64,000 nt of DNA from NCBI GenBank assembly GCA_011388275.1, contig DSAB01000119.1, forward strand, positions 41,285 through 105,284. Direction: 5' to 3'. A program made the translations under genes and the position numbers. The stretch comes from a bacterium. Its GTDB lineage: Bacteria; Zhuqueibacterota; QNDG01; DSAB01. Below the pieces are notes generated by a model. That model was not told the origin of the DNA, ran no database searches, and saw only the letters and a list, made by a program, of their open reading frames with translations. Of this stretch, positions 27,230-49,547 are shown in pieces. Positions within the stretch are counted from its first letter, which is position 1; every line of letters begins with the position of its first letter.

Positions 27230-27258
27230 AACATAATAAAATGGAGAATAAAAATCAA
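27230..27258 (-). promoter_or_regulatory. Putative sigma70-type promoter for the PorV-like gene
   Basis: TTGATT (27258-27253), 17 nt, TATGTT (27235-27230). Confidence 0.45.
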
Positions 27259-27370
27259 CTGGTATTTTGCTGTTTCATACTGTTTTTGTATCTTTTACGG
27301 CCGTTTTGGTTCCGCGATATGGAGAACGGGAAATGGACTGCCCGAATCATTTCGGTTTTCAGTAAATTGT

Positions 27371-28333: not shown

Positions 28334-28348
28334 CGAATCTTTTCCGTT

Positions 28349-32704: not shown

Positions 32705-33813
32705 GCCTCCAGTAAAGATTTATAAACTTCCAATACTCGAGAGGCGCAACGTTGCTCCGAATAGAGCCTGCTGATTTTTTTAGCTTCCAGGCCCAATCGA
32801 TGCCGCAGCGTCAAGTTGTTCATGATTTCAATAATGGCTCGACTCAGCGATTTACTGTCTTCGGGTTCCGTCAGGAGGCCGGAGCTACCATGATGAAGCA
32901 TAAAGGGAATATCGCCGACACGTGTGGCCGCGATGGGCAGTCCGGCGGCCATGGCTTCGAGCAGTGTCACAGGCCATCCCTCCCTTCGTGAAGGAAGAAC
33001 GAAAACATCAAAGATCGAATACCAGCCGCTTACCGCATGCTGATATCCCATGAACCGAACGCTCTGATCCAATCCTCTTTTTCTGCAAGTCTTCTCCAGA
33101 TTCTGACGCAGCGGACCGTCTCCGAGAATCACGCAGCGGGAATCCGGAAACACACTTTGCACGAAACCAAAAGCTTCGATCAGTATGTCGTGGCCTTTTT
33201 CCGGACTGAGTCTGCCTACTGTTCCGACAAGTCTCCCCCGTCCCCACTTTCTTATCTCCTTCTGAACAGCAGTTAGAGGTGTTTCTTCATGAGGCTTGAC
33301 GCCATTGGGTATCCAGGTCAGTCGATCCGGCCGCATGCCAGTGCGCTGCAACGAACGGACAATAGGGCGAGAGACCCCGATAACATGGTGCAATTTTCTC
33401 AACGCAAGCAGATCCAGTGCTTCCCAGATGATTACCGGAATTCCGGCATGGGTCCACCCATGTTTTGTCGCCACCACCGGTATGCCGGTTTTTTTCGATA
33501 CGGCCAGTCCGTACAGATCCGCTTTGAATCCATGCGTATGCAGAATTTGAATCTTTTCATGAACCAGGGTTTGGGACAGCGATTGAATGGTTCGGGAATC
33601 CCATCTTCTTGAACAGGGAAAATTGATGAAAGGAATATTGATTCCCCGAGCCGCCTCACTGAATTCCGAAGACGGGGATCGCCGATCATCGATATTGCCG
33701 ATGATGATCTCATTCCCAAATGCATGCAATTGTCGAGTCAGAGACAGAATCACGTGTTCGGCACCGTAATATCCGGAACTCTTTCTCAACATCATAACCC
33801 GAACCGGTTTCAT
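32701..33813 (-). CDS. GT4 glycosyltransferase
   Basis: YGAE, HTHGFKAD, VGRLSPEKG, PSRREGWPVTLLEAMAAGLP. Confidence 0.92.
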   Translation of the reverse strand: MKPVRVMMLRKSSGYYGAEHVILSLTRQLHAFGNEIIIGNIDDRRSPSSEFSEAARGINIPFINFPCSRRWDSRTIQSLSQTLVHEKIQILHTHGFKADLYGLAVSKKTGIPVVATKHGWTHAGIPVIIWEALDLLALRKLHHVIGVSRPIVRSLQRTGMRPDRLTWIPNGVKPHEETPLTAVQKEIRKWGRGRLVGTVGRLSPEKGHDILIEAFGFVQSVFPDSRCVILGDGPLRQNLEKTCRKRGLDQSVRFMGYQHAVSGWYSIFDVFVLPSRREGWPVTLLEAMAAGLPIAATRVGDIPFMLHHGSSGLLTEPEDSKSLSRAIIEIMNNLTLRHRLGLEAKKISRLYSEQRCASRVLEVYKSLLEA

Positions 33814-33817
33814 GACC

Positions 33818-35269
33818 TCAGGAATTCCTCCATTGAAATATTTGATTTCTTTGGCGCCATAAGATACGAATCATCTCGATCTCTTCAGAGCTGAAAGACC
33901 TGAGCAGCCACAGACAAAGACCGTAGACGATCAAGCCCGAAGGCACAACAATAAACAGTGAGACCGGCAAACAGATCACCAGACCCATAACTACCGCCGA
34001 TAATGCGGGACGAAAAAATACATCCCAAAAAGGAATTCTGAAAAGGACACGGGATACATAAAAGTTCTGAACCAGTAGAAAAAATACAATAGAGAGCAGG
34101 GTTGCCACGCCGGCTCCAAACGGTCCAAAACGGGGAATCAGCACCAAATTCAAACAAACATTGAAAACCGCACCCATCGTGTTGACCCACAGATCGATGC
34201 GCTGACGATGGCTGGCGATTAATCCGTTACCCAGAATGTTGGCAATCGGAAAGAAAACCATTGTCCAGATCAGCACCTGAAGGGTGGATTCCCCGCCGGA
34301 AAATTCGGCCTGGCCGTAAAGAAGAAGGAGTATTTCCCGTGCGCGCAGCGTGACAGCTACGGCCACGGGCAAAGAAAATATCAACAGATATTTTATCGAC
34401 CGAATACAGCTGATTTGAAAAGATTCCCGAGACTGAAGATAAAAATGGGAAATAACCGGGAATATAGCAACGATGTAACTGTTGGCCAGTTCCTTTCCGA
34501 TGCTCAGAAGACGATAGGCAGCCGAATACAGACCCACTGAAACGGTTCCCTGCATTTTTGACAGCATAAGGATGTCCGTATTCCAATAGACCATCACCAC
34601 AATCGACAGAGCGAAAAAAGTGGGAATCTGACGAAACAGATCGAAAAAAGATTCTCGGTTCAGTTCCCAGCGTATAGGCCCGGCCCCCCTGTGCACTAAA
34701 ATTAATCCCAGAATCATGGATATCAAATGAGACACAGCCACCGCTCCGATTACGGCAATGATCGGTCCACGAAGCACCAGAACGGTGATCCCCAGAATGA
34801 CCTTGATCAGAGTTTCGGAAATAAGAATAACAGCCGTATACTCCATGCGTTCAACACCCTGAAGCAAAGCCTGTGTGATCAGACTGATGGTATAACAGAT
34901 CAAAGCCGGCGCCAGAATCATCACGCCGTACAGAATGGCGGATTCATATTTCAGAAGTACGGCCGTGCCCGCCATAATCATGGAAAAGATCAAAGCCGAA
35001 ATTCCTCCCAGCAGATATCCGCCAGACAAGATTCTCCCCACCGAAGAGGGCCTGGCCGCAACATCACGAACAATGGGTCCATGCAGTCCCAGAGCCGAAA
35101 ATGTGGTAAAAAATGAAAACAATGTCAGAACCGTCGTATATTCGCCCAGACCCTGCGCGCCTGTCTGCCGCGATAGTACCAATACCAGCACCATCGCCAG
35201 AAAGGGGTTGGTGACCCGGGCCACTGAAAGGAAGTAGGTATTTCGAATCAATCTGACCGACCGCCTCAT
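33818..35269 (-). CDS. wzx: Wzx oligosaccharide flippase
   Basis: Many TM helices; D.LML......SVGLYSAAYRL; LIPRFG..GA..AT. Confidence 0.9.
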   Translation of the reverse strand: MRRSVRLIRNTYFLSVARVTNPFLAMVLVLVLSRQTGAQGLGEYTTVLTLFSFFTTFSALGLHGPIVRDVAARPSSVGRILSGGYLLGGISALIFSMIMAGTAVLLKYESAILYGVMILAPALICYTISLITQALLQGVERMEYTAVILISETLIKVILGITVLVLRGPIIAVIGAVAVSHLISMILGLILVHRGAGPIRWELNRESFFDLFRQIPTFFALSIVVMVYWNTDILMLSKMQGTVSVGLYSAAYRLLSIGKELANSYIVAIFPVISHFYLQSRESFQISCIRSIKYLLIFSLPVAVAVTLRAREILLLLYGQAEFSGGESTLQVLIWTMVFFPIANILGNGLIASHRQRIDLWVNTMGAVFNVCLNLVLIPRFGPFGAGVATLLSIVFFLLVQNFYVSRVLFRIPFWDVFFRPALSAVVMGLVICLPVSLFIVVPSGLIVYGLCLWLLRSFSSEEIEMIRILWRQRNQIFQWRNS

Positions 35270-36705
35270 GAATCCTCCTCAACGGGTGGATGCTCTTTCT
35301 GAAACCTGTTATCACCCAATCCAGCCGCCATGCCGGCCACAAGCCAAAGATGGTAATCCGAAATGCGTCCATCAAGTGACTCAAAAAACATTTGCAGGCA
35401 AAATACCAGCAATCCAATGGCCAGAGCTCTGGCCAATAAAGCAATGTTTTTATTCAACGAACGGGAAGCGCATATCAAACTTCTGAAAACAGCGGCAAGA
35501 AATACAAGAAAAGTGACAATGCCTGTGATTCCAAGTTCCGCCATTACCAGCAGATAGCGGTTATGCACAATCCATCGTTCCTGTGTCAGGAAAAAAGGTA
35601 CATAATCGGACATGATCAACGCATACACATTGGTTCCGGCACCAAAAACAGGATAAAAACGAAATATTTCCCAGGCCGACCGTATAAGCTGGAGCCGGTA
35701 CACCAGTGTCTCTGTTCCCTGGCCGAAGCGTGACCACAAAACATGCCCGAATACCAGTAATCCGGCGACTGCCGCGATTCCTGCTGCGGCAATCAATTTC
35801 CAGATTCCCCGATTCCGAAAATGAATACTAAAAAGGATCATCATGCCGATCGAGAAAGTCAGCCACGCTCCTCTCGTTTGGGTCAGAATCAAACCAATAA
35901 TTCCCATAGTCAGAGAAACAATCGGAAGCAAACGTTTGCCGGAACGGTTCATCAGTAAAAGCGTCAGCGGAAGCGGCAGCAGCGAGGCCATGTAACTGGC
36001 GGATACATTGGGCGATCCCGTGGTGCCGGCGGACCGGAATAACACTTCACCATAATTCTCGACGACTTCCAGTGCCGCTGTGGTAAAATTGGATTGCGCA
36101 ATGAACTGAACGATGCAAACGCCGCTCATAATAATCAGACAGCCCATCAACAGATTGCAAAACAACCTGTATCGACCTTCATAAGCGATGTGATTGGCCA
36201 CCAGAAAATACAGAAGAAAGACTTTGCCGTTTTGGACAACAGCAAACAAACTTAAACTCATATCCGGAGTGTTTAAAATGGAAAGCAGATGGGCGGCCAG
36301 AAACAATAACGCAGGCACTGACACCGAAGCATAGAACTGCATACGCTGCCTGCCCGAAGACATATGAAAAATCCAGATAAATATCAGAATGAAGACTGCG
36401 GCATCCGTAATGGTCAGCATGATACCATTGAACGTCCCCACATATTCACGGTATATCAAATGGATATTAAACTCCAGGGGTACGGCCAGCACAAGCATGG
36501 CCCATAACAGATCCCATGGCCTGCCTGTCAATTGAACGACGACCGGCCAAATTAACAGGCATGTCATCAAAACAAACATGGCAACGATCCATCGCTGGCT
36601 CAGGCCTCCCATTTTGAGACTTATCAGAGACATCATCAAAACCATAAGAACCATAAGAGCGAAAACAGCATGGCGTTCCAGCATTTTCTGCCCGTGCAGA
36701 TTCAC
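35266..36705 (-). CDS. Wzy polymerase / O-antigen ligase-family membrane protein
   Basis: Multi-TM; LTQTRGAWL; periplasmic loop ending P.FGAG.N...HN.YL....ELGITG. Confidence 0.82.
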   Translation of the reverse strand: MNLHGQKMLERHAVFALMVLMVLMMSLISLKMGGLSQRWIVAMFVLMTCLLIWPVVVQLTGRPWDLLWAMLVLAVPLEFNIHLIYREYVGTFNGIMLTITDAAVFILIFIWIFHMSSGRQRMQFYASVSVPALLFLAAHLLSILNTPDMSLSLFAVVQNGKVFLLYFLVANHIAYEGRYRLFCNLLMGCLIIMSGVCIVQFIAQSNFTTAALEVVENYGEVLFRSAGTTGSPNVSASYMASLLPLPLTLLLMNRSGKRLLPIVSLTMGIIGLILTQTRGAWLTFSIGMMILFSIHFRNRGIWKLIAAAGIAAVAGLLVFGHVLWSRFGQGTETLVYRLQLIRSAWEIFRFYPVFGAGTNVYALIMSDYVPFFLTQERWIVHNRYLLVMAELGITGIVTFLVFLAAVFRSLICASRSLNKNIALLARALAIGLLVFCLQMFFESLDGRISDYHLWLVAGMAAGLGDNRFQKEHPPVEEDS

Positions 36706-37595
36706 CTTCTGCCTCCCTTCTCATGGTTTTTCAGCAAATCGAATCGGCGCAATATTTTCTGAAGTTTACCCAGCCAATTCAGTGCGCCCCGAATCTTTGA
36801 CTTGAACATAAAATTCCCGTCATCCTTGAAAATCTGTATTCTGCGCAAATGATAGGGGCATGTCCTGTGTCTATTGAAACCCATATCCGTGGTACAGGCC
36901 GCTTGATAGTGATATTGAATAAAAAGCCGGCGAATAACGGATTCGCGTTTGCTATCCACTCGTCCTCCGCGAAGGGAATAGGGATAGGCGAAGTAACGGA
37001 CGACGCGTTTGAGTTTCTCCTCCAGGATTATTTTGGATCCGCCTATCTCTTTTTCCAAATCCTGAACCGGAATCAGCCCCAGCCGCGGATGAGTCATGGT
37101 ATGCGATCCTACGGTCACGACTGTTTCATCGATATTGCCGATCTGTTCCCAGGACATAACCTTTCGATTTGCTTGATGCTTCGAACACATTCTTTTTAGT
37201 GATCCCGATTCCTCTCCTCTGTTTTTGACGAAATCAACGGGAATAAAGAGGTGGGCGTGAAAACCGTATTTTATCAGCACGGGAACCACATGACGCTCGA
37301 AAGATTCGTATCCGTCGTCGAACGTCAAGACGACATTTCTTTTACGGTCCGATAGACGCCCGGAACCTTCCAGCCAGTCATCCAGAGTGATAACCTGACA
37401 ATGTTTATGTATGTATTCCATCTGATATTTGAATCGATCAAGACTTACGTCATACGACGTGCAGGGATCCTCGGCAATATGATGATAGGCCAGAATGATG
37501 CATCGCCTCCGTTCCTTTCGTTTCCATAAAAGTCCGTAAGCCGGCCAGAAAAGGATGCTGATTCCGGCCATGCCATACGTGTTCATTTTCCTCAT
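36702..37595 (-). CDS. CE4 polysaccharide deacetylase (IcaB/PgaB-like)
   Basis: ILAYHHI, LTFDDGY, GSHTMTHP, FAYPY. Confidence 0.9.
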   Translation of the reverse strand: MRKMNTYGMAGISILFWPAYGLLWKRKERRRCIILAYHHIAEDPCTSYDVSLDRFKYQMEYIHKHCQVITLDDWLEGSGRLSDRKRNVVLTFDDGYESFERHVVPVLIKYGFHAHLFIPVDFVKNRGEESGSLKRMCSKHQANRKVMSWEQIGNIDETVVTVGSHTMTHPRLGLIPVQDLEKEIGGSKIILEEKLKRVVRYFAYPYSLRGGRVDSKRESVIRRLFIQYHYQAACTTDMGFNRHRTCPYHLRRIQIFKDDGNFMFKSKIRGALNWLGKLQKILRRFDLLKNHEKGGRR

Positions 37596-38791
37596 CGGGT
37601 GACCTGCCTCCCCCTTCCGACCAGTGTATCAATGAGACGGAGATAATTCGACTTGTATCTTTCCCATCGATGAAAACGGAAAAACTGCTTTGCGTTCCGG
37701 ATCTGCGCCCGCCGAAGCGAAGGCGACCGGTACAGTTCGTAGATCGCACGGGCCATATCATCAGGGTCTTCAGGCCGGAAGAACCGAACCATTTGATCAT
37801 CGAAGTACCGTTTCGATGCGGTTGTTTCTGAAACCACGACAGGAAGCTCCATCGCCGCAAATTCCATAAGTTTGGTTGAAAGAGCCTCATCGGCAAACAT
37901 GCCTCCCTTTTTAGGAACCAGTCCGACATCGGCGTTTCTCATCCACTGCGGGACACTCTCCAGCGGTATGGAATGACCGGTAAAGCGAACATGTGAATTC
38001 AGGGCAAGTTCTTCGGCTTTCTGGCGCAGATACGACAGTTGGCTTCCATCGCCGACAATCTGAAACAAAATAGAAGGAATTTTTTCCTTGAGCATTGCCA
38101 CGGCTTCCAAGGCGATATCCACTCCGAAATGTTCAGCCAAATTTCCCGGATAAACAAGCGTAAACCTTCCTGACCTGATGGGTTTGAAACGTTCCGGGTT
38201 GAAAAGGGTGGTGTCCGGCACGTTCATCATGACCATACACCGATGGGCCGGTACGGAACGTTCGAGTTTTTTCTTCCAAATATCGGTCACAGTAATGACA
38301 TGGTGTGCAAAACAACAGGAGGCTTTTTCCACTTTCAGGAGGCCTCTGACGATGATGTGGTCCATCGTGACATTGAATTTTCTCGCATAAAATTCCGGAA
38401 CCAGATCATGAATATCCAGTATGAGTTTCGAACCGGTCATTCGCGGCAGCCAGGCAGCGAATATTTGGAAATCGGGGACGGAATGAACATGAACCACGTG
38501 ATATCGGTTTCGAACGTGAATACGGTTGAGAATCACCATGGAATGGAAAAAGAAACGAAACAGCCGCCATAAATAATCGAATGGATTCATCTCATTGTAT
38601 GCGCGTCCCATTATCTTGACCAGGCGGACTCCGTTCAGCTGTTTTTGATCGCCTAAAGGACCATCCTGCTTCAGACAAATGACATCCACTCTGTGTCCCG
38701 CACGGACCAGCGCTTCGGCATCCCGCCGGACACGGGTGTCCGATTCATAAAATGAATAGACCATCATGGCTATGCGCAAAGACGACTGCAT
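37592..38791 (-). CDS. GT4 glycosyltransferase
   Basis: DTRVRRDAEAL, LDIHDLVPEF, YPGNL...FG, STKLMEFAAMELPVV. Confidence 0.9.
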   Translation of the reverse strand: MQSSLRIAMMVYSFYESDTRVRRDAEALVRAGHRVDVICLKQDGPLGDQKQLNGVRLVKIMGRAYNEMNPFDYLWRLFRFFFHSMVILNRIHVRNRYHVVHVHSVPDFQIFAAWLPRMTGSKLILDIHDLVPEFYARKFNVTMDHIIVRGLLKVEKASCCFAHHVITVTDIWKKKLERSVPAHRCMVMMNVPDTTLFNPERFKPIRSGRFTLVYPGNLAEHFGVDIALEAVAMLKEKIPSILFQIVGDGSQLSYLRQKAEELALNSHVRFTGHSIPLESVPQWMRNADVGLVPKKGGMFADEALSTKLMEFAAMELPVVVSETTASKRYFDDQMVRFFRPEDPDDMARAIYELYRSPSLRRAQIRNAKQFFRFHRWERYKSNYLRLIDTLVGRGRQVTR

Positions 38792-38794
38792 GTT

Positions 38795-40246
38795 TCATCC
38801 TTCACGGTAAACAACGCGGGAATCCATCATTCGATGATGCCGTAGAGACTCCATGCACCGACGAAAGATCATATTCTGAAAAAACAATCTCTGGCCCCAT
38901 GAACTGGCGAACAGGCTGCCTGCCAACCGGCTCAGGAATCCCGTTTCCCCGATTATAAGCTGGACAGCCCTTCTCGTGACATCCTTTTCAATTCTTCTGG
39001 CCATTTTGAGCAATCTCTTTCTTTGCTCTCTGTTCAGTTCCGGGGTCTCGAATACGGGTTCGTTCTCATTCTCCGTGACACTGTTCAGATAAATTTCCGG
39101 AGACTTGATAAACGCATCCCGCTCCTGTATTATGTCATACAGTTCGGTACCCGGATAGGGAATCGGGTTATTCAAAATGACGCGGCGAACCGGATACTTC
39201 TGAACCAGCCGGAAACTGTCCATCACGTCATCCCAGGTCTCGAAGGGCATACCAAAAATACAGAACAGTTTGACATCGTATCCAAGATCGCAGGCTGTCC
39301 TGATCGCACGTTCGATCTGTTCGATGGATTCTCCCTTTTTATTGGCACGCAGCATACGGTCGTTGCCCCCATCCACACCAAATGCGATATAGTGAAATCC
39401 CACATCTTTCATGCGTTTAAGCAGCTTCCGATCCACCCGGTCCGCCCTCAGTCCGTTGGAACACCGGAATTCCGCATCGGTCAGTCCCCTTTTTTTAATT
39501 TCGTCACACAACTTCAGGACGCGATCTCTCGATAAAGTGAAGTTGTCGTCGTCAAAATTAAAAACACGATAGGATCTTCGGTGCCAATACTCGATCTCAT
39601 CGGCGACATGCGCGGGACTGCGCGGGCGAAATTTTTGAGTAATCATCCGGTTTGGACAAAATATACATTGCAGAGGGCACCCCCGGCTCGAATTGATGGG
39701 TATTTCTTTGATATAGCGATCCAGTTCGAATCCCTGATAGGTGGGAAACGGAATCGCATCAAGATCCGTTTGGGGTGCACGGTTTCCGTTGAACACAATC
39801 CCTTCCGGTTTCCGGTGAATAAGACCCCCGATCCGGTTGAAATGTTCTCCGCGGCAAAGTTCCACCAGCGTTTCTTCTCCTTCGTGAACCACACCGAAAT
39901 CAATCGACGGGCATCCTTCGAGCACCCGTTCCCGGCACACCGTCACATGTGGCCCTCCGGCCACAATCCCAACATGAGGGTAATGATCCTTGATCACCCG
40001 GATCATCTCATAGGTCTTCCTGTATTCCAGAGATACCATGCTGATGCCGATCAGGTCGGGCTGAAACCATTCGATCTTTCTGATCAGCCTCTTGAGGCTT
40101 CCTCCGAACCGCATATCCAGTACATCATAATGAATGTTATTCGCCAAAAGGGATTCCGCCAGATAACCCAGGTTTTGCGGCGGTCGGGCGGCTCCCAGAT
40201 AGCTGGAAGAAGGAGGGCTGATTAACAGAATCCGGTTATAGCGCAT
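38795..40246 (-). CDS. Cobalamin-binding radical SAM enzyme (class B methyltransferase-like)
   Basis: N-terminal B12-binding domain (PPQNLGYLA, GGPHVT, GEGE-like HEGEET); SRGCPLQCIFC; FDDDNFT. Confidence 0.9.
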   Translation of the reverse strand: MRYNRILLISPPSSSYLGAARPPQNLGYLAESLLANNIHYDVLDMRFGGSLKRLIRKIEWFQPDLIGISMVSLEYRKTYEMIRVIKDHYPHVGIVAGGPHVTVCRERVLEGCPSIDFGVVHEGEETLVELCRGEHFNRIGGLIHRKPEGIVFNGNRAPQTDLDAIPFPTYQGFELDRYIKEIPINSSRGCPLQCIFCPNRMITQKFRPRSPAHVADEIEYWHRRSYRVFNFDDDNFTLSRDRVLKLCDEIKKRGLTDAEFRCSNGLRADRVDRKLLKRMKDVGFHYIAFGVDGGNDRMLRANKKGESIEQIERAIRTACDLGYDVKLFCIFGMPFETWDDVMDSFRLVQKYPVRRVILNNPIPYPGTELYDIIQERDAFIKSPEIYLNSVTENENEPVFETPELNREQRKRLLKMARRIEKDVTRRAVQLIIGETGFLSRLAGSLFASSWGQRLFFQNMIFRRCMESLRHHRMMDSRVVYREG

Positions 40247-41006
40247 CAGGCACGCCTCCCTTTTTCAACCGATTATTGAGTTTTCGAACCTCATGAAACG
40301 GCATCGTCTTATAATGTTTCCCTTTTGTCCGAGACTTTATCGTGACAATTTGATGATCACGGACCTTCAAGACAGCGTCGGCCAGCAATTCAGCGCCACG
40401 AACAACGGCCCGGTCATTGATAGAATCCACGGTATCTCCGGGTCGAACAGTCAGCTTCTCGCGTATCACAACAGGGCCGGTATCTATTCCCGCGTCGACG
40501 AAATGCACACTCACGCCCGGACAATCTCCTTTCAGCAGCGCATAGGCGTTTGCACCCAGGCCCCGATATTCCGGAAGCCATCCGGGATGCGCGTTCAGGC
40601 AGCCCAATCGGGCTGTCTGGAATATTTCCGGCTTGAGAATAGGCGCCGACGCAATGACCAGCAAATCGGGCTTCAAGGAATTCAGCAGACGAATGCATTC
40701 CATTGAATTAAACAGCCCCACAGGAATCGACGGGATGCCCGCCCGCGAAGCAAGATCAAGAATCGTTTCGGATGATCTTCGCAGCCGCAGAGTCTGCCGG
40801 ACACGCCAGCAGGCGGACATTAAACCATCTTTCACGACTTTCCGCTTGAATCGATTCCACTTCTTCCGTCGGCTCTGTGCTTCATAGACCACAGCCTTGA
40901 CAGGTATCTTTCTTTCAAGAAAGGTTTTCATGACAATCCATCCGGCAGGATTATCCGGATAAGCCAATATAACCGTTGAGAATTCCTCAGAAATCGATGA
41001 CATCAT
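40236..41006 (-). CDS. N10-formyl-THF-dependent formyltransferase (Fmt-like)
   Basis: CLNAHPGWLPEYRG and HFVDAGIDTGP retain the N/H/D triad. ATG 41006 overlaps the psd-like stop. Confidence 0.85.
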   Translation of the reverse strand: MMSSISEEFSTVILAYPDNPAGWIVMKTFLERKIPVKAVVYEAQSRRKKWNRFKRKVVKDGLMSACWRVRQTLRLRRSSETILDLASRAGIPSIPVGLFNSMECIRLLNSLKPDLLVIASAPILKPEIFQTARLGCLNAHPGWLPEYRGLGANAYALLKGDCPGVSVHFVDAGIDTGPVVIREKLTVRPGDTVDSINDRAVVRGAELLADAVLKVRDHQIVTIKSRTKGKHYKTMPFHEVRKLNNRLKKGGVPDAL

Positions 41007-41821
41007 GAATCTCCGGACAGTGAAAATTGTGCCAGAATGGTTTCTCCCGCCCGGACCTTTTGACCTTTTTCCACTGTTAAAGTCAGATGCGGAAAAACCG
41101 GAATGACGATATCCACCTGTGATCCGAATACAATCCTGCCGGTACGCTGTCCTCTGTCGACCGATTCCCCGGCCCGGACATATGATCGGATACGGCGAAC
41201 CAGGCGTGAAGCAATCTGAACAACAGCCACCTGCCATTCTTTATGCTGAATAATTGTTGTGACCCGTTCGTTAAGAAAGACCGATTCCGTTCTTCTCAGA
41301 GACAGAAACGCGCCTGGAATATATTTGACCATGGTCACTCTCCCTGAAAGAGGCGCACGGTTGACATGAACATCCAATATTCTCATCTCAATGCCTATCA
41401 GCCAACCATCCTTTTGGCTGACAGGAGTGTGGACGAGTTCTTCCAGAATATGTTTATCCTTTTTCTTGGTTGCAATCGGGATTTGCCCCTTTCCGATGCG
41501 AACCACATACCGAACGATTCCATCCGCCGGAGAAACAATGATATCGGGTTCACGCGGTGTGGTTCGATTCGGATCCCTATAGAATCGAAACAGGATCACA
41601 GCGCCTATCCAAAAACACTGTAAAACGACGCTCAGTGCCACTATCCCCGTCAAAGTTATATTTGAAATCAGCGGAGAGCACAGATAAACCGTTCCTCCGC
41701 CGAGAAGACCGATCAACATACCGCCTGACGCTCCGATTTTCCAGCCCAAATTGAGTTTAAGAGCCAGTCCTGTGCAGATTACAATCCCTGTTATCAGATT
41801 CCATATCCATGGATTCGACAT
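41003..41821 (-). CDS. psd: Phosphatidylserine decarboxylase-like pyruvoyl enzyme with N-terminal TM helices
   Basis: FYRDPNR, IVSPADG, DVHVNRAP, NER, QIAS..VRRI, FGSQVD self-cleavage site. Start set at ATG 41821. Confidence 0.8.
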   Translation of the reverse strand: MSNPWIWNLITGIVICTGLALKLNLGWKIGASGGMLIGLLGGGTVYLCSPLISNITLTGIVALSVVLQCFWIGAVILFRFYRDPNRTTPREPDIIVSPADGIVRYVVRIGKGQIPIATKKKDKHILEELVHTPVSQKDGWLIGIEMRILDVHVNRAPLSGRVTMVKYIPGAFLSLRRTESVFLNERVTTIIQHKEWQVAVVQIASRLVRRIRSYVRAGESVDRGQRTGRIVFGSQVDIVIPVFPHLTLTVEKGQKVRAGETILAQFSLSGDS

Positions 41822-41822
41822 T

Positions 41823-43085
41823 TTAAAAACCTCTCTTTTTCCATAACGCGGCCAAAAGCAGCCATTCTCCGAAGAATGGAAGCGGATCCCGGAGCGACCA
41901 TACAGCAAACTCCTTTTTCCCCTTCATGGACTGTATGTATTGATTAATCCGCATGCGTCCCCGAAGTATTTCCAGAGCTGCTGTGGGAACATCCGTTGTC
42001 AGTCGTACCCACTTTTCAGCCGGCCTGAAACGAGTTTTGACATGCAATGCCTGACGGCCTGTATTCGGGCGAGAGTCGATAACCAGATCATGATAGACCA
42101 TCCAGGGAAGGTTCACGCCGGCTCCGACAGCCAAACTGTGCCAACCCCAGATTCTGGGGTTGATCTCAAGCATTTTGAATTGCTCATCACGCGGATCCCG
42201 TATGAATTCCACTTCGGCCAGTCCATAATAGTCAATGGACCTTAAAAATTTTTCTGATATTTTCTTCAGAAGGGGAATGTTGACGATCTCGACATAGGTG
42301 CTGGCCTGACCGAAATCCATGGGATGCTGGCGCAGCCTCTGTGCCGTGATACCAGCCACACTTTTTGTGTTCTTGAAAAATGGACAAAAAGAAAACAGAT
42401 TGGCCGCGACATCCGGTATCAACTCTTGAACAATGATTTCACTCGATGGAATAACTGCCGCCGCGGATGCATAGGCCCTTCGAAGTTCATCGCGACTATA
42501 CGCTGGAAAGACTTTCTTTCCCGTTTTCCGGAAAAACGGTCTCATGACCGCCGGCTTGACAACAGCCGGAAACGGTATGTTTGAATCTTCCAAATCATCG
42601 AACGATCCCGGAAAAAAAGTCTGTGGAATCGGGATACCGAGCTTGGCAGCCTGTTTATACGTTTCTCTTTTATCATAAACAAACGCAATGGATGACCAGT
42701 CCGGCGTCATAAGTCGAAAACAGCGGCTCAAAAGCTTGTGATTCCTAGATAAAAAATGAACGCTTTCATCATCCGTCGGATAAATAACAGCACCACGAAG
42801 AAGCGGTTTGTTTCCCCATTCAAGAAAACATTGAAGCGCCTGGGCCTCCATTCGAATATCGGGCATCTTCAGACTGCCGCTTAGGAATCTGGAAAATCGG
42901 GAGAGATTGGGTTCATGATCCGCCACGTAGACCCGAACTCCTTTGCATGCCAAAGCACGAACAGTTCCCAAACCCTGAAAATGTCCGCCAATCACAATGG
43001 CAGGCGCTTTTTCTTGCCGGTTTTTCACAGTATCACTCCCTCTGCGCTCATGCAAAACGGAATCAAAATACGTTCCAGCCGTCAT
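41823..43085 (-). CDS. ATP-grasp carboxylate-amine ligase (D-aspartate ligase-like)
   Basis: LGTVRALA..G, PTDDES, DKRETY, P.VVKP, IVQELIP, EVEFIRD.RD...KMLEINPR.WG. Confidence 0.85.
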   Translation of the reverse strand: MTAGTYFDSVLHERRGSDTVKNRQEKAPAIVIGGHFQGLGTVRALACKGVRVYVADHEPNLSRFSRFLSGSLKMPDIRMEAQALQCFLEWGNKPLLRGAVIYPTDDESVHFLSRNHKLLSRCFRLMTPDWSSIAFVYDKRETYKQAAKLGIPIPQTFFPGSFDDLEDSNIPFPAVVKPAVMRPFFRKTGKKVFPAYSRDELRRAYASAAAVIPSSEIIVQELIPDVAANLFSFCPFFKNTKSVAGITAQRLRQHPMDFGQASTYVEIVNIPLLKKISEKFLRSIDYYGLAEVEFIRDPRDEQFKMLEINPRIWGWHSLAVGAGVNLPWMVYHDLVIDSRPNTGRQALHVKTRFRPAEKWVRLTTDVPTAALEILRGRMRINQYIQSMKGKKEFAVWSLRDPLPFFGEWLLLAALWKKRGF

Positions 43086-45361
43086 TTCCCGGCTTCGATT
43101 TCATCGGAATAGGTCATATAATAGGAGTGATACCCATAGTAAGACTTCGGGTCCATGCCGTTCAGTACGGCCCCCAAAATAGTGGCGTCGACACTGTTCA
43201 GGAGTTCCAGTGAACGTCGAATGAACTGTTTCTTCGTTTCATTGACCCGCACAACCAGGACAACTCCATCCACAAAGGAAGCCAACACGGTTGCATCCGT
43301 TACCGGCAGAAGCGGAGGACTGTCCAGAATGACTATTCCGAAATGTTTTCGGGCTTCGTGTATGAATAACTGCATCTCCCTGGAACAAAGCAGTTCAGAG
43401 GCATTTTTCACCAGGGCTCCGGCCGGCATCAGAAACAGGTTTTTTACCGAAGTTTCGCGTATAACCTCTTTCCAATGCAATGCATGTCCCAGATGATGGG
43501 TCAACCCGTTTTTGCTCTGTGTTCCCAGAAACAGCATGTCGAGTACCGGCCTGCGCAGATCGCTGTCAACCAGCAAAGTTCGTACTCCTTTGTTGGCAAA
43601 AGTAATCGCCAGATTGGCGGATGTTGTGGATTTGCCTTCTGACGCTCCTGCACTGGTGATGAGAATCGCCCGGTTTTTCAATTTATTGTTTGTAAAATAG
43701 ATGGAGGTTCTTATCACCCGATAAGCCTCCGCAATGGATGAATATCCCTGACGATGCGTGAGCAGATGAGAAAAAATATCACGGGCCCGATTCACTTTGG
43801 ATTTCTCGGATCTTTTTGTTTTACCCCGTTTTTTCTCCGAGACGGTTGGAACCGTTCCGATGACACGAATTCCGAATTGGAACAAATCGCTTTCATCGTA
43901 TACCGTGTCCCGTAAATATTCCTGCCCATAGGCGTACCCGAATGCCAGAAGCACGCCGAAAAAACCGGCCAGCAGCAAAGTCAGTTTCTTTTTTGGAAAC
44001 ATCGCTTCACCCGGAGGAGCAGCCAGATCCACAACACGGATGATGTTCATCTGACCCGCCTCCCGGATTCGAGCTTCTTCATATTTTTCACGCAGCATGA
44101 TATACAATTTATTGTTTACCTGAACATCCCGTTCCAGTTTGGCCAGTTCACGGTCTTTATCCGGGATCGATTCCATTCTTTGAGTATATTCCGCCAGAAC
44201 CAGACGCAATTCGTTACGCCTGGCGAGATGGGATTTTTGCAATGTTTCCAGTTCCAGTATCTGTTCCATTAGAGTTTCAGATCGGCTCAGCGGGTTTATA
44301 CCTGCCATTCCTGAATTCACCAGCTTCCGGGTCTCTTCGATCACTCTTTGGTTAATTCCATTGAGACGGTCATCCATCTCTTTCAGCTTAACGTTTTGGC
44401 GTGTATCCAAACCCGCCCCGATGAGCTGAGATTCAAAAGCCGCCCTTCTGTTCATCAGTTCCGCACGTTCGTTTCTCAATCTGGACAATTCCGGTGTAGA
44501 CAATCGGCTCACATTCTCCACCAATGACCTTTGATTCTCGTCCAATTGAGCCTTTAAAAACGCGAGCTGTGTATCAACGGCTTCCAGATCGGTTTTCGTC
44601 TGTTTATAGACAGTTTCAAATTCGCTGATACGTTGAACAAGCTGTTCTGTTTCACTGTTCAGGGATACCACGCCATGAAATTTCTTGAAATTGGTCAATC
44701 GGGCTTCCGCTTCGGCGAGTTGGTGTTCCATTTCCATGAGTTTCTCTTCCAGAAACATCCTGGTTTTATTGACCTGGCCTTGCGTATCCGAGCGATGATA
44801 ATCCTGATAAGCCTGGATCCAGGCATTTACAATGACCGCCGCTTCCCAGGGTCTGGAAGCGACAGCACGCAATTCAACGATATCCGTATCGCGGCCGTAA
44901 ATGACTTTGGTTTGTGACTGAAAATCAGCACCCGCTTCCTGAAGTGTCAAAGGGCCTGAAGGTTGTTTTTCTTTTTTTCTGATACCCAGCCGGTTTCCAA
45001 TGCCTTCAGTCTTCTCCTGATCATTGCCCGCCCCCAAAATCACCAGCGAGTCCGCATAGGGGGATTCCTGCAAACGGTGAATGACATCCAGCGCCAGACT
45101 GTGACTCTGCAAAATAGCGACTTGATTCTTGATGAGATTTTTCTGAAAAAAAACATTTGGAAAATCAAAAATTTGTCCATGGAGGTCACCCTCCTGAATA
45201 GAAAGAGATGCCGAAGCCTGATAGACGGGCTTTGCGACTGTCAGAAAGATCACGGTAAGTGTAATAACCGCGATAAAAGTAATGATCGCCCCTTTCCCGT
45301 GTATTTTGAGAGGGCGAAACACTTCACCCAGGTCAGCCGTTTGTCTTTGTTTTTCATTCAT
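43082..45361 (-). CDS. wzc: Wzc polysaccharide co-polymerase / tyrosine autokinase
   Basis: Two TM helices flanking a coiled-coil periplasmic region; EAYRVIRT, TSAGASEGKST, VDSDLRRP, DSPP; C-terminal Tyr cluster YYGYHSYYMTY. Confidence 0.93.
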   Translation of the reverse strand: MNEKQRQTADLGEVFRPLKIHGKGAIITFIAVITLTVIFLTVAKPVYQASASLSIQEGDLHGQIFDFPNVFFQKNLIKNQVAILQSHSLALDVIHRLQESPYADSLVILGAGNDQEKTEGIGNRLGIRKKEKQPSGPLTLQEAGADFQSQTKVIYGRDTDIVELRAVASRPWEAAVIVNAWIQAYQDYHRSDTQGQVNKTRMFLEEKLMEMEHQLAEAEARLTNFKKFHGVVSLNSETEQLVQRISEFETVYKQTKTDLEAVDTQLAFLKAQLDENQRSLVENVSRLSTPELSRLRNERAELMNRRAAFESQLIGAGLDTRQNVKLKEMDDRLNGINQRVIEETRKLVNSGMAGINPLSRSETLMEQILELETLQKSHLARRNELRLVLAEYTQRMESIPDKDRELAKLERDVQVNNKLYIMLREKYEEARIREAGQMNIIRVVDLAAPPGEAMFPKKKLTLLLAGFFGVLLAFGYAYGQEYLRDTVYDESDLFQFGIRVIGTVPTVSEKKRGKTKRSEKSKVNRARDIFSHLLTHRQGYSSIAEAYRVIRTSIYFTNNKLKNRAILITSAGASEGKSTTSANLAITFANKGVRTLLVDSDLRRPVLDMLFLGTQSKNGLTHHLGHALHWKEVIRETSVKNLFLMPAGALVKNASELLCSREMQLFIHEARKHFGIVILDSPPLLPVTDATVLASFVDGVVLVVRVNETKKQFIRRSLELLNSVDATILGAVLNGMDPKSYYGYHSYYMTYSDEIEAGK

Positions 45362-46628
45362 GATAACGCCTTATAAAATCCCAAATTGTAACACCATCAA
45401 TGTCTCCGGTAACTGCCAGACAGCATTTTCGATTCTCAGGCCATCGCCAAATTCTCATCAGCGGACCTTGAACCGGCAAAGAGTAATCACCTGATAAGTC
45501 CCTTTTCAGTTTCATCTCGTCGGAAGGAAGCAGTACTGTGCTGTACTGCCGATGATTCATTAATTCATATGGATACCCTTCCTGCCTCATCCATGCTGTT
45601 ATATCCTGAGAGCAACCTGGATCGATTCCAACGATCGGATGCTCCTTTCCCGAGAATTTCCATGGAGTTCCTTGAACCGTAAAGTTTCCAGGCCCATCAC
45701 ATGTGTAACCTTTCGTTCCTTTGACCAGAAGAGTGGCCCGGCTGCTTCCCTCCAGGCAAATCTCCTTTATCCCCGAATCACTCTCTCTGATAATGAATTG
45801 AACGGAATCCCGTTCAATCCACCATTCTGCGATTTCCTGAAGAGATGCGATCCAGACATTTTCACTTTGAGCTTTTCGCAAAATCGTTTCCAAAGCGCGG
45901 TTGAATTGAAAATACCGTTCGGGATGCAGCTGCAGCACAAGACATTCTCCTGTCTGACAGGCCCGTTCCAGCATTCGGCTCCATACAGCTGCCAGTACTT
46001 CCTGTTTTCGTATTCCCAACCTTTCGATCAGAATATCGTCATCGGGCATAGCAACCGGTATTTCCACCATCTCCCCGATGAACCGAGGCAGGGATGCCGA
46101 ACCCGAATCCATCGGTTGATATGTTTCCAGAATGGTTTGAAAATTTTTCCAGCGGCTGCGTGAACATTTTCTTGAGGACAGGTTTTCCCAAAGAATGACT
46201 TCACTGCTGTCCCATCGGAAGCCCGCTTCCGCCAGCCATTCAATTCTGTGTTTGTCACGTCTCAAATAAGGGAATCTAAATCCTTCACACGGATAACCGG
46301 CTTTATTGAAAAGGGCCATCGCTTCCTGAAAATGCGACGCGTTCTGAGTACGATCCATCATTGTATAATCCACGTGCCGTAACCCATGGATCGCCAAAAC
46401 AGCCCCCTGCTTCATCAACCTTTGAAAAAGGGACGGATTTTTATCCAGCACAACGGCTGTGGTCGGAAATGTCGGTTTGGCCTGATAGCGTTCCATTAGA
46501 TCCATAAATTGAATGACCGATCGGCTGAATCGTCTTTTTCCCAATCCGTATCGGTACAATATGGAAAAAACACGCCCCAGGTTATTTGCAAACGATCTCG
46601 TACTCAGGCGTTTGACCAATTGCTCCAT
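45354..46628 (-). CDS. CE4/NodB-fold polysaccharide deacetylase-like protein, apparently circularly permuted
   Basis: PTFPTTA, LAIHGLRH, GFRFPYL, EIPV, LHPE near the N-terminus; the motif-1-like WPENRKCCLAVTGDID is at the extreme C-terminus. Confidence 0.72.
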   Translation of the reverse strand: MEQLVKRLSTRSFANNLGRVFSILYRYGLGKRRFSRSVIQFMDLMERYQAKPTFPTTAVVLDKNPSLFQRLMKQGAVLAIHGLRHVDYTMMDRTQNASHFQEAMALFNKAGYPCEGFRFPYLRRDKHRIEWLAEAGFRWDSSEVILWENLSSRKCSRSRWKNFQTILETYQPMDSGSASLPRFIGEMVEIPVAMPDDDILIERLGIRKQEVLAAVWSRMLERACQTGECLVLQLHPERYFQFNRALETILRKAQSENVWIASLQEIAEWWIERDSVQFIIRESDSGIKEICLEGSSRATLLVKGTKGYTCDGPGNFTVQGTPWKFSGKEHPIVGIDPGCSQDITAWMRQEGYPYELMNHRQYSTVLLPSDEMKLKRDLSGDYSLPVQGPLMRIWRWPENRKCCLAVTGDIDGVTIWDFIRRYHE

Positions 46629-46653
46629 CGATCCGGTCCTTCCTTCTTTGGGT

Positions 46654-47640
46654 TTATATGGAATGGTATCCCATCGCCAATGCCCTGACTTTCTTGCCGT
46701 TTATACCTCTCAGCCAATCATGCGTCATGACCAGTCCTTTCTGCATATTGGTCGTTGGAGCCCATCGCAGCATGCGTCTTATCTTTTCAATGTTCAGAAC
46801 TCTTCTACGGATATTATCAATATCCCGCTTATCGACATACACGGGATCGGCCTTATATTGAGCAATTTTCATCATAGTTGAAGACAAATCATAGATACTC
46901 GTCTCTTTTCCCGAACTGACATTAAAAACCTCTCCGACCGCTTTGGGACTTAATGCGGCCAGCAAGGTGGCTTCCACCACATCGGAAACGTAGGTGAAAT
47001 CCCGAGTCTGATCACCGTCGCCGTGAATATGCGGCGGCTGGCCTTGCAAAATCCAGTCGAAAAATTTTGAAATGACCCCGCAATATGGGTTTTGAGGAGA
47101 TTGATTGATTCCATAAACATTTGAAAACCGCATGACAACCGTGGGCACTCCATATGATTCATAAAATGCCGAACAAAAATTTTCTCCCGAAAGCTTGCTG
47201 GCCGCATATGGGCTGAGTGTACTGATACGATCATCTTCATTGATGGGCAAGTATTTCGGATTTCCATACACCGAAGCGGAAGAGGAATACACAACGCGCT
47301 CGACACCGTATTTTTTCGCGGCCAGAAGCACTGTAAACGTTCCGCCTGAATTGACCTTGAAATCCAGCAAAGGCGATACGGTTGACACAATGATATTTCG
47401 GACCGCCAGATGAAAAACAATATCGGCCCTTTTCACCAGTCGATCGACCAATTGCGCGTTGGTTACAGTACCCTCTATAAAATTGATGTACTTCAGGCAG
47501 TCGATATTCTCTTTTTGTCCTGTAAGCAAATCGTCGAGGACGGTCACATCCGCCCCTTCTTTGACCAGCGCGGACACCAGGTTTGATCCGATGAATCCAG
47601 CCCCCCCGGTCACCAGGATTCTCTTATTACGAAAACGCAT
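46654..47640 (-). CDS. NAD-dependent nucleotide-sugar epimerase/dehydratase (extended SDR)
   Basis: TGGAGFIGS, SSASVYG, YAASK, RFSNVYG, RDFTYV.D. Confidence 0.93.
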   Translation of the reverse strand: MRFRNKRILVTGGAGFIGSNLVSALVKEGADVTVLDDLLTGQKENIDCLKYINFIEGTVTNAQLVDRLVKRADIVFHLAVRNIIVSTVSPLLDFKVNSGGTFTVLLAAKKYGVERVVYSSSASVYGNPKYLPINEDDRISTLSPYAASKLSGENFCSAFYESYGVPTVVMRFSNVYGINQSPQNPYCGVISKFFDWILQGQPPHIHGDGDQTRDFTYVSDVVEATLLAALSPKAVGEVFNVSSGKETSIYDLSSTMMKIAQYKADPVYVDKRDIDNIRRRVLNIEKIRRMLRWAPTTNMQKGLVMTHDWLRGINGKKVRALAMGYHSI

Positions 47641-47680
47641 CAGACAACCTCTTCATTTAATGAATTGTTTGATCTCATTC

Positions 47681-48454
47681 TCAATACACATCCCTCATGG
47701 ACAAGACATAAGGAATGGTCATTAAAATAATTTTTAAATCCAGCAGCAAATTCCAATGGTCAACATACCAGAGATCATAAAGGATGGATTCTTCGTAATT
47801 CTCCGGTGTCAGTCTGAGATTGATTTTGGACCAACCGGTCAGCCCCGGCTTGACTTCAAGTCTGCGGAAATACCAGGGCTTATAGGCCTGTACCTCATAT
47901 ACCGGATGAGGTCTGGGTCCTACAAGACTCATCCGTCCGCTTAAAATATTGATCATCTGCGGCAATTCATCCAAACTGGTTGCACGCAAAAGCGCACCAA
48001 CAGGGGTCACGTATGATTGTACATGGTTGATGTACCGTTCCAATAAATCCGGCTTCGATTCCGCTCCGATTCCTTCATGCAATAGATACCGAATATAGGC
48101 TTTGTGGTCTTTCTGCGAATCTGTATGAAACATGGTGCGGAACTTATAAATTAAAAAAGATCTTCCTCTGAGTCCAACCCGCTCCTGTCGAAAGAATACC
48201 GGGCCCGGTGAACTCAACTTGACAGTGGTTGAAACCAGAAGCAGCAAAGGCCATGCTGCCAGCAAAAAAAACATTGAGAAAGAAAAATCCATCAAACGTT
48301 TGACTCCCAATAGAAAACCGGCAAAACTCTTTTCCTGTAAGCTATCGGCAGAATGAGGTGTTTCATCCATGATCTGGCTGAATGAAATCCCCCGTGTATA
48401 ATCCATTGCCGGCAATGATTCAGTTCGCATAGCGTAAAACCGTTCTCCATTCAA
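47681..48454 (-). CDS. Initiating polyprenyl-phosphate sugar-1-phosphate transferase (monotopic PGT)
   Basis: KRLMD, FFRQERVG..G..F.IYKFRTM, LDELPQ..N..G.MSLVGPRP, KPGLTGW, DLWYV. Confidence 0.93.
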   Translation of the reverse strand: MNGERFYAMRTESLPAMDYTRGISFSQIMDETPHSADSLQEKSFAGFLLGVKRLMDFSFSMFFLLAAWPLLLLVSTTVKLSSPGPVFFRQERVGLRGRSFLIYKFRTMFHTDSQKDHKAYIRYLLHEGIGAESKPDLLERYINHVQSYVTPVGALLRATSLDELPQMINILSGRMSLVGPRPHPVYEVQAYKPWYFRRLEVKPGLTGWSKINLRLTPENYEESILYDLWYVDHWNLLLDLKIILMTIPYVLSMRDVY

Positions 48455-48467
48455 TCAAAGGTTGAGT

Positions 48468-49154
48468 TTATGCAAAACGATATCCCAACCCATGAATGGT
48501 TTGTATGTATTGTGAGTTGTTGCCGTCTCCACCCAATTTCTCACGCAGCCTTTTTACATGAACATCAACGGTTCGGTCCGTCACAAAGGCGCTCTTTCCC
48601 CACACTTTCTCCAATATCTCTTCTCTTGAAAAAACATAATCCCTTTTCGAGGCCAGCAAATACAAAAGTTTGAACTGTGTATAGGTAAGATCCAGATACT
48701 GCTGATTTTTATGGACGGCCTGACTGTCCAGATTAATCTCAATATCCTTAATTTTCAGTATCTTTGGCGTGTTGCCGACCATATCGATCCTGCGGACAAT
48801 GGCCTTTACCTTGGCCACTAATTCATCCGCTTCAGATATATCGTGAAAACAATCATCGGCTCCCCCATTTTCCATTGCCACAATACGCTCATCGGTTTTT
48901 TTATTCTCTGTGATCAAAATCAGAGCGGTTTGACTGCACTCATTTTGTATAACCGAAGTCAATTTTTTCATCTTCTCTCCAACAAAATCCCAGTCGACAA
49001 TCATGGCCTGATAGAATATTAATCTGAGATTATTGATGGCCGTTCTGACATCCATTGTGCAGAAAACCTCAAAACCGGATCGAATGAATGCGTGTTCGAT
49101 GGACTTGGTTTTGGCATTTCGATCCATCAGCAGAAGGATATTTTTCTTTTCCAT
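48468..49154 (-). CDS. OmpR/PhoB-family response regulator with an atypical receiver
   Basis: wHTH: LTYTQFKLL, FSREEIL..VWG, RTVDVHVKRLREKL, IQTIHGLGYRF. The receiver keeps the phospho-Asp (IVDW) but lacks the KP motif. ATG 49154 follows GGGGTGA. Confidence 0.88.
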   Translation of the reverse strand: MEKKNILLLMDRNAKTKSIEHAFIRSGFEVFCTMDVRTAINNLRLIFYQAMIVDWDFVGEKMKKLTSVIQNECSQTALILITENKKTDERIVAMENGGADDCFHDISEADELVAKVKAIVRRIDMVGNTPKILKIKDIEINLDSQAVHKNQQYLDLTYTQFKLLYLLASKRDYVFSREEILEKVWGKSAFVTDRTVDVHVKRLREKLGGDGNNSQYIQTIHGLGYRFA

Positions 49155-49547
49155 GGACAATCACCCCTTTGTATCTTTGAACAGAATGTTCTCTTCATGA
49201 TGCACAGGCAAACTCCATACCAAAGAATGTGTGTCCATTTTATGCTATTATTTATTTATCACTTAGCCTTGTTTAACCTTGTTCCTATCGGTCAATAATT
49301 ATGACAATAAGGAAAAATATTCCCCGGCAAATAAGAATATATTGCATTCGTGTCATAATCGCTGCAAGCCAGAATCGTTCGGTTGTAAAAGCGGGAATAC
49401 ATGATGCATTACGGACTCGTGGAAGGCACAAACGACTCAATGCGAACGGATCGAGTCATCAATAGACGCCTGAATCAGCGAAATGCGTGTGCAGGCATCC
49501 GTAAAAGTAATTTTATTCGGGATTGTTATACGAATGATTCAGACTAA

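Follow-up and report, generated by a model that had tools for sequence, protein, structure and literature searches.

ATP-grasp ligases activate a carboxylate as an acyl phosphate and pass it on to an amine. The ATP-grasp D-aspartate ligase Aslfm/AslA of Enterococcus and Lactococcus peptidoglycan, reportedly described by Bellais and by Veiga in 2006, is said to join the side-chain carboxyl of aspartate to an amine in this way. A related sequence of events is known from mycothiol and bacillithiol synthesis, where MshB or BshB de-N-acetylates a derivative of N-acetylglucosamine (GlcNAc) in the cytoplasm, an amino acid is ligated to the glucosamine (GlcN) in an ATP-dependent step, and the amine of that amino acid is then capped. 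A different chemistry is provided by the short-type phosphatidylserine and archaetidylserine decarboxylases (Psd; PF02666; TIGR00164; structures 6L06 and 7CNW-7CNZ), which belong to the pyruvoyl enzymes. Pyruvoyl decarboxylases form a Schiff base that needs a free alpha-amine on the substrate, from which the alpha-carboxyl leaves (PMC7952604), and the phosphatidylserine decarboxylase (PSD) fold has been recruited beyond phosphatidylserine in PsiD, the L-tryptophan decarboxylase of psilocybin synthesis (PDB 8X4Q/8ZIA; PMC11929908). In the HS:2 capsule of Campylobacter jejuni, the C-terminal ATP-grasp domain of Cj1438 amidates glucuronic acid with ethanolamine phosphate or serinol phosphate, and the next glycosyltransferase requires this tailoring before it can act (PMC11800379). 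Here we describe a 64,000-nucleotide stretch of DNA (the window) from a bacterium of the Zhuqueibacterota (GenBank assembly GCA_011388275.1, contig DSAB01000119.1, positions 41,285 to 105,284 of the forward strand), in which genes for an ATP-grasp ligase, a Psd-like pyruvoyl decarboxylase and a formyltransferase lie next to each other inside a polysaccharide operon. Judging from sequence comparisons and structure models, we propose with a probability of roughly 0.55 that this cassette tailors a glycan: aspartate or glutamate would be joined to a de-N-acetylated amino sugar and decarboxylated, and the amine would then be formylated.

The cassette shares features with each of these systems and departs from each of them. 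The module Psd-like protein (by module we mean the recurrent ATP-grasp/Psd-like pair) has the fold of the short-type decarboxylases, their Asp, His and Ser residues with the Gly-Ser (G-S) site, and an N-terminal anchor, but in contrast to them it never adjoins pssA, falls in a separate clade, reads GSQ instead of GSR, carries an insert of ~20 amino acids, a third helix and some 45 additional residues, and always stands in glycan clusters together with an ATP-grasp gene. PsiD differs in being soluble and fungal and in acting on a free amino acid. The product of Aslfm/AslA, with its free alpha-amino-acid end, is what a pyruvoyl decarboxylase would need, a likeness by chemistry; its acceptor, however, is the lysine of a peptidoglycan precursor, whereas here the proposed acceptor is a sugar amine, in a Wzx/Wzy operon with no racemase partner. 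The HS:2 system is alike in that amide formation by an ATP-grasp enzyme adds to a polysaccharide an amine that stems from an amino acid or a triose. It differs in that the sugar carboxyl is activated, the amine is premade by soluble enzymes (with a pyridoxal-phosphate-dependent decarboxylase) and a TupA-like domain is present; our ligase gave no TupA-type (PF14305) Pfam match, domain searches found no UDP-sugar 6-dehydrogenase encoded in the window's operon or in the clusters of its close relatives, and the decarboxylase is of a membrane-bound pyruvoyl type. Mycothiol and bacillithiol synthesis differ from the present proposal in their LmbE-type deacetylase, in a Cys ligase of the aminoacyl-tRNA synthetase class, in the lack of a decarboxylation, and in making a small-molecule thiol, not a polymer.

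The ligase (420 amino acids; 41823..43085), the Psd-like protein (272 amino acids; 41003..41821) and the formyltransferase (256 amino acids; 40236..41006) are all encoded on the minus strand. The stop codon of the ATP-grasp gene (TAA, 41825-41823) is followed after one base by the Psd-like ATG at 41821, and the Psd-like gene ends in a TGA (41005-41003) that shares an ATGA with the start codon of the formyltransferase gene at 41006. The coupling extends in both directions, with an ATGA overlap between the stop of the upstream wzc gene and the ATP-grasp ATG (43085-43082), and an 11-nt overlap between the formyltransferase gene and the gene of a B12-binding radical S-adenosylmethionine (SAM) enzyme downstream. 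The three genes are confirmed as real and translationally coupled. The longest open reading frames (ORFs) run further upstream, from a TTG at 41908 for the Psd-like gene and from an ATG at 41237 for the formyltransferase gene, and alignments of homologues support the shorter starts at 41821 and 41006 as the probable ones. Most homologues of the ligase have 389 amino acids, the window ORF is about 30 codons longer, and its residues 1-23 are modelled with a predicted local distance difference test score (pLDDT) below 50; the true start may lie about 20-28 codons downstream, with a GTG at codon 20 as an alternative.

The Psd-like protein matches PF02666 with an E-value of 5.4e-44 and carries the motifs SPADG (D100), LDVHVNR (H152) and FGSQVD (S234; cleavage motif FGS/QVD). 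Across 18 aligned sequences D100, D150, H152 and G233-S234 are invariant, and D100, D150, H152 and S234 align with D90, D142, H144 and S254 of E. coli PSD (residue roles: PMC7952604); on this alignment, all residues for self-cleavage and pyruvoyl formation appear to be present. In an AlphaFold2 (AF2) model with pLDDT 87.2, three N-terminal helices (4-22, 27-51 and 57-81) precede a beta-rich catalytic domain, for which the best fold match in PDB is E. coli PSD 7CNZ (Foldseek E 8e-7, 190 columns, root-mean-square deviation 3.4), followed by PsiD at 13-14% identity. Because an Arg-rich segment follows the three helices, the catalytic domain would lie on the cytoplasmic side, where the ATP-dependent ligase is expected as well, and the modelled membrane anchor suggests a polyprenyl-linked substrate. 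An earlier note on this DNA, made from the sequence alone, had described three adjacent genes with a 1-nt gap and then an ATGA overlap, a Psd-like protein that keeps the HVNR His and the G-S site in FGSQVD, and extra transmembrane (TM) helices; the first two descriptions agree with the sequence and the alignment, and the last with the three helices of the model. We also considered whether the change from R to Q after the pyruvoyl Ser marks a lost phosphate ligand. The phosphate ligands of E. coli PSD are Y137, S166 and V167, and the position corresponding to the change is T255, in an LGST motif tied to cleavage rate (PMC7952604); since the known ligands do not fall at conserved differences, the idea was rejected, and GSQ is retained as a clade signature only.

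The genome from which the window comes (96% complete) has two PF02666 genes. The second lies on contig 18 (L002:1444-2136, minus strand) after purB-purC, encodes a protein of 230 amino acids with FGSRVD, and is directly followed by the gene of a 252-amino-acid CDP-alcohol phosphatidyltransferase (pssA). Its product is 26% identical to the Psd-like protein of the window, which is 42 amino acids longer (272 vs 230). Searches of the genome with PF01066 (CDP-alcohol phosphatidyltransferase) gave five matches, all off the window's contig, and PF00884, which covers the sulfatase and phosphoethanolamine (pEtN) transferase fold, matched nowhere in it. The earlier note had reported that neither pssA nor a pEtN transferase is found in the window and had proposed to look for a separate pssA-linked psd elsewhere in the genome; the former is upheld by these searches, and the latter is the gene on contig 18. 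Scored against NCBIfam, the Psd-like protein stays below every equivalog cut-off: the best model, NF003685, reaches 164.3 bits (cut-off 183), TIGR00164 reaches 159.4 bits (cut-off 230), and the archaeal 'protein sorting system archaetidylserine decarboxylase', among the next-best matches, 128 bits (cut-off 240). A maximum-likelihood tree was built from 17 Psd proteins linked to the module, 16 linked to pssA and 3 further short ones. In it the 17 ATP-grasp-linked sequences form one clade regardless of host phylum; its support is 100/100, and its stem measures 1.91 substitutions per site. This clade is recognisable by its invariant GSQ (GSR in the others), an insert of ~20 residues (GEIPFxEKKG...), the motif IASRLVRRI and an extended membrane region at the N-terminus. 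When 1.84 billion representatives were searched exhaustively, 123 clusters (50% identity) were obtained at E<=1e-30, with GSQ in about 103 of the 125 best representatives and GSR only as scores drop to the level of ordinary Psd. In nine of nine module-carrying genomes checked from the phylum sample described below, a short psd with pssA directly after it or close behind is present in addition. On these comparisons, the Psd-like gene of the window is not the housekeeping psd. The contig 18 protein itself has an unusually long terminal branch in this tree (3.35 substitutions per site; median 0.48) and still keeps SPADG, HVIR and FGSRVD.

The association of the Psd-like gene with the ATP-grasp gene holds over long evolutionary distances. 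A first scan with the ATP-grasp query, using one genome per species, gave 14 loci, and the Psd-like gene adjoins the ATP-grasp gene in 13 of the 13 with room for it; the pair also occurs inside glycan clusters on three more contigs, of which NCBI labels two as archaeal. Among 151 genomes evenly drawn from the window's own phylum, an ATP-grasp orthologue (at least 44% identity) occurs in about 19, with the Psd-like gene alongside in all. Finally, a profile-based scan of the species collection gave 241 relatives, of which the best 80 are the basis of the locus counts below. These 80 loci come from more than 15 phyla, including KSB1, Chloroflexota, Kiritimatiellia, Planctomycetota, Acidobacteriota, Nitrospirota, Calditrichota, Ignavibacteria, Actinomycetota, Desulfobacterota lineages, Entotheonella, Saccharibacteria, Spirochaetota and WOR-3, and no cultured isolate is among them, all being metagenome-assembled genomes or uncultured organisms. 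In 63/77 loci with room, no more than 3 kb separates the Psd-like gene from the ATP-grasp gene, and it usually lies less than 270 nt downstream. In 14 loci the ATP-grasp gene stands without a Psd-like gene, and since 8 of these 14 still have a gene for a deacetylase of carbohydrate esterase family 4 (CE4), decarboxylation looks like an optional add-on after ligation. A racemase gene was found neither in the window cluster nor as a recurrent neighbour across the 80 loci, and no recurrent partner specific to one amino acid was seen across them. Protein clustering of 21 loci gave the Psd-like and ATP-grasp proteins in all 21, a family 4 glycosyltransferase (GT4), the B12 radical SAM enzyme and Wzc in 12 each, the formyltransferase and the deacetylase PDA1 in 9 each, and a family of 316-amino-acid proteins (F316) in 7; a FemAB-like GNAT (PF13480) recurs in 6. 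Three tandem ATP-grasp paralogues (in one locus) and/or FemAB-like GNATs are found at L018:2174-7185, L013:11940-13013 and L020:3861-4892 and 7159-8220, and such genes hint at longer, peptide-like side arms.

Several natural fusions join the Psd-like domain to partner enzymes in one polypeptide. Two proteins of 695 amino acids (P0148 and P0158) consist of an N-terminal Psd-like and a C-terminal ATP-grasp part, the latter 35% identical to the window ligase. A protein of 474 amino acids (P0142) joins a Psd-like domain to a formyltransferase that is 44% identical to that of the window over 249 residues, and one of 521 amino acids (P0146) joins it to a SAM-dependent methyltransferase. Because two of the three types of fusion partner modify amines, the fusions point to the newly made amine as the next substrate.

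The ligase itself gives weak Pfam matches to ATP-grasp domains, and its AF2 model (pLDDT 87.4) shows a clear ATP-grasp fold, matched by Foldseek to biotin carboxylase, PylC, 2pn1 and L-amino-acid ligases (E about 1e-15, identity 13-16%); the fold is confirmed at the level of the model. A sequence search of PDB returned weak matches only, to acetyl-CoA and carbamoyl-phosphate enzymes, and NCBIfam gave PRK12767-like matches only, far below cut-off. There are 938 relatives of the ligase at E<=1e-10.

The formyltransferase (PF00551, E 1.2e-20) retains the Asn-His-Asp catalytic motif, with LGCLNAH and IDTGP aligning with Fmt structures, and appears to be dedicated to the module. In the 151-genome sample, 13 matches (E<=1e-29; 12 orthologues at 46-54% identity, one match at 30%) are distinct from housekeeping fmt, and 13/13 adjoin the module's Psd-like gene, while all weaker matches in the sample are housekeeping fmt of 300-350 amino acids. 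The protein falls below the NCBIfam cut-offs for fmt, PurN, ArnA and dTDP-Qui4N formyltransferase. Domain searches of the window's polysaccharide operon found no sugar aminotransferase of the DegT type, as a route through an NDP-amino sugar would need, and because of this free amines would have just two sources within the cluster, de-N-acetylation and an attached amino acid. A housekeeping fmt is also encoded in the window (about 8484-9482, minus strand), 32% identical to the cassette formyltransferase over the catalytic core. The B12-binding radical SAM enzyme (38795..40246, minus strand; 483 amino acids; PF02310 and PF04055) is a predicted further tailoring step; it scores below all NCBIfam cut-offs, its orthologues in the 151-genome sample (at least 49% identity) are found only at module loci or on short fragments, and the enzyme occurs in 34/80 loci.

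A source of free sugar amines is offered by the CE4 deacetylases. PDA1 of the window (45354..46628, minus strand; 424 amino acids; PF01522, E 1.7e-9) has no signal peptide, TM segment or N-terminal hydrophobic stretch, and for that reason should act in the cytoplasm. In other phyla the Psd-like gene is followed by F316 (e.g. L016:7990-8940), which has no Pfam match and no signal peptide and is homologous both to PDA1 (hhalign probability 96.5%, E 8.6e-10) and to a solved polysaccharide deacetylase, PDB 3rxz. Counting partial matches, a CE4-type gene is present in 18/21 loci, and with 53/80 loci having one within 3 kb of the ATP-grasp gene, CE4 is the third commonest member.

From the gene structure, folds and motifs, the separate psd-pssA pair, the clade separation, the linkage and the fusions, we infer each chemical step of the following scheme, as well as the order in which the steps occur and the identity of amino acid and acceptor. 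At the cytoplasmic face of the membrane, the CE4 deacetylase would strip the N-acetyl group from an N-acetylhexosamine (HexNAc) of the lipid-linked (or nucleotide-linked) repeat unit. The ATP-grasp ligase would then convert the side-chain carboxylate of Asp (or Glu) to an acyl phosphate and couple it to the sugar amine, leaving the alpha-amino-acid end free. The Psd-like protein, having cleaved itself at G233-S234 to generate its pyruvoyl group, would form a Schiff base with this alpha-amine and remove the alpha-carboxyl, so that a beta-alanyl (from Asp) or gamma-aminobutyryl (from Glu) arm with a terminal primary amine would result, which the dedicated formyltransferase would cap with a formyl group. 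The B12 radical SAM enzyme may add a further modification, probably a C-methylation, and at other loci the terminal amine may be the substrate of the fused methyltransferase or of Fem-like transferases.

The scheme is constrained by the chemistry of the two central enzymes. Because the pyruvoyl group needs a free alpha-amine, the substrate should be an amino acid held by its side chain, in the manner of the serine of phosphatidylserine, and an acidic amino acid attached through its side-chain carboxyl to a de-N-acetylated sugar would be the sole tether to fit both enzymes and the cluster; a beta-aspartyl amide is close to a serine phosphodiester in length and shape. The earlier note had offered a possible ligate-decarboxylate-formylate line in three versions. 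As a line it has gained from comparative genomics, namely the linkage across phyla, the fusions and the exclusivity of the formyltransferase, while its chemistry keeps the standing of a proposal. Its first version, in which an acidic amino acid is attached by its side chain to a deacetylated amino sugar, loses its alpha-carboxyl and is formylated, appears to fit best and is strengthened by the recurrent, presumably cytoplasmic CE4 proteins. Its second, in which Ser forms an amide with a carboxyl before it is decarboxylated, has chemistry against it, since the amidation uses up the alpha-amine needed for the Schiff base; the cluster also has no UDP-sugar 6-dehydrogenase.

Several observations weigh against the proposed scheme. 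The fold match of the ligase is generic (13-16% identity) and therefore silent on substrates, and the name 'D-aspartate ligase', which some of the 938 relatives carry, is only an automated name given to orthologues by the Joint Genome Institute (JGI). About a third of the loci have no CE4 gene within 3 kb. The two UDP-sugar dehydrogenases of the genome lie on other contigs, so that such enzymes do exist outside the cluster, and some module loci of other phyla carry WbpB/D/E-like genes together with a UDP-sugar dehydrogenase; in these loci, the activated group could be the carboxyl of a uronic acid. Metagenomic fusions can be artefacts of assembly or gene calling. The module-type Psd is the sole PF02666 match in two of the sampled genomes, G045 (94% complete) and G059 (80% complete), and for this reason some residual phosphatidylserine decarboxylase activity of the module enzyme is possible. 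The module Psd genes in question are at C40:5167-5730 in G045 and at C36:1491-2054 in G059; either the housekeeping psd is unassembled there, or synthesis of phosphatidylethanolamine (PE) is covered by the module enzyme or by another route.

The uronic acid loci lead to an alternative order of events, in which the decarboxylase acts first, as in Campylobacter: an amine would be made from a free or lipid-bound amino acid, and the ATP-grasp ligase would then amidate a uronic acid with it. The HS:2 ligase domain and the use of a free amino acid by PsiD are precedents for this order, and it is mainly the versions of the module with a UDP-sugar dehydrogenase and WbpB/D/E-like genes that fit it. We nevertheless consider it unlikely, since the window cluster and its close relatives lack the dehydrogenase, the recurrent deacetylase makes amines and not carboxyls, and three TM helices are hard to square with a soluble amino acid as substrate. 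Moreover, the amine would be spent in the amide, which would leave the linked or fused formyltransferase and the methyltransferase without a substrate unless a diamine were used; the ATP-grasp gene occurs with CE4 and without the decarboxylase in 8 loci; and a TupA-type domain is missing.

Alternatively, the Psd-like protein may have a role on the lipid side, for example by converting phosphatidylserine to PE, whose amine would be amide-linked to a carboxyl of the polymer, giving a lipid anchor or a new aminolipid. The PSD fold with its membrane anchor, the archaetidylserine decarboxylase among the next-best NCBIfam matches and the cdsA gene that precedes the operon in the window and at three related loci would suit such a role. 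It is very doubtful all the same: none of the examined loci has a pssA-type gene with the module, the cdsA neighbourhood is limited to close relatives while the context is always that of glycan synthesis, and the linkage with formyltransferase, methyltransferase and CE4 would be left unexplained. An ordinary phosphatidylserine decarboxylase that supplies PE and sits in the operon by chance, the third version of the earlier note, can practically be dismissed in spite of the PF02666 domain, the full set of catalytic residues and the two sampled genomes with the module type only, given the psd-pssA pair on contig 18, the different clade on its long stem and the scores below all equivalog cut-offs, the tight linkage and occasional fusion with ATP-grasp across phyla, and a genome without any pEtN-transferase-type gene. 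The note would have given up the tailoring idea for a sole psd that complements PE synthesis and clusters with housekeeping Psd proteins; the genome and the tree show neither a sole psd nor such clustering.

The setting of the cassette is a long polysaccharide operon of the Wzx/Wzy/Wzc type, delimited by domain searches to about 26184..49160 on the minus strand. It begins with a response regulator, a small phosphoglycosyl transferase, an NAD-dependent epimerase, PDA1 and Wzc (43082..45361, minus strand), a chain-length determinant and tyrosine autokinase with Wzz, GNVR and AAA_31 domains that scores 182.8 bits with TIGR01007, above its cut-off, and continues with the ATP-grasp ligase and the Psd-like protein. 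The formyltransferase and the B12 radical SAM enzyme are followed by a GT4 glycosyltransferase (37592..38791, minus strand), of a kind found after the cassette in 12/21 loci, and then by a second CE4, Wzy, Wzx and two GT4 proteins; an alpha/alpha-toroid protein, WecB, a further GT4, a methyltransferase and a protein without assigned function close the operon. The cdsA gene (phosphatidate cytidylyltransferase; 49641-50471, minus strand) is the next gene upstream of the response regulator at the head of the operon, an arrangement that is kept in three related genomes (L045:903-1727, L049 and L050) and not in distant phyla. A DUF362 gene and a gene for a multi-4Fe-4S protein (52697-53596 and 51174-52685) lie a few kb upstream of the operon, and one relative encodes a DUF362-like protein of 446 amino acids at the position of the formyltransferase (L047:10187-11527), between the Psd-like and radical SAM genes.

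The enzyme families assembled here are known, and it is their combination and the implied substrate that are new; full-text literature searches found nothing on the pairing of a PSD-family enzyme with an ATP-grasp ligase in the synthesis of polysaccharides. Taken across all lineages, it is an even proposition that the PSD family has a second job, in which N-acetyl groups of lipid-linked sugars are turned into amine-ended omega-aminoacyl arms of the beta-alanyl or gamma-aminobutyryl type that are then formylated, methylated or extended, in more than 15 bacterial phyla and some archaea. If this is true, a textbook family of phospholipid enzymes would have a second function in glycan tailoring, and the automated annotation 'phosphatidylserine decarboxylase' would be wrong for a whole clade. 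It would further mean a new route to cationic or N-formyl-aminoacyl decorations of exopolysaccharides in abundant uncultured lineages of sediment, soil and groundwater, and a previously unrecognised class of surface-glycan decoration across these bacterial phyla and some archaea. The module would then serve as a predictable marker of glycan chemistry in metagenomes, and would offer a new pair of amide-forming and decarboxylating enzymes for glycoengineering.

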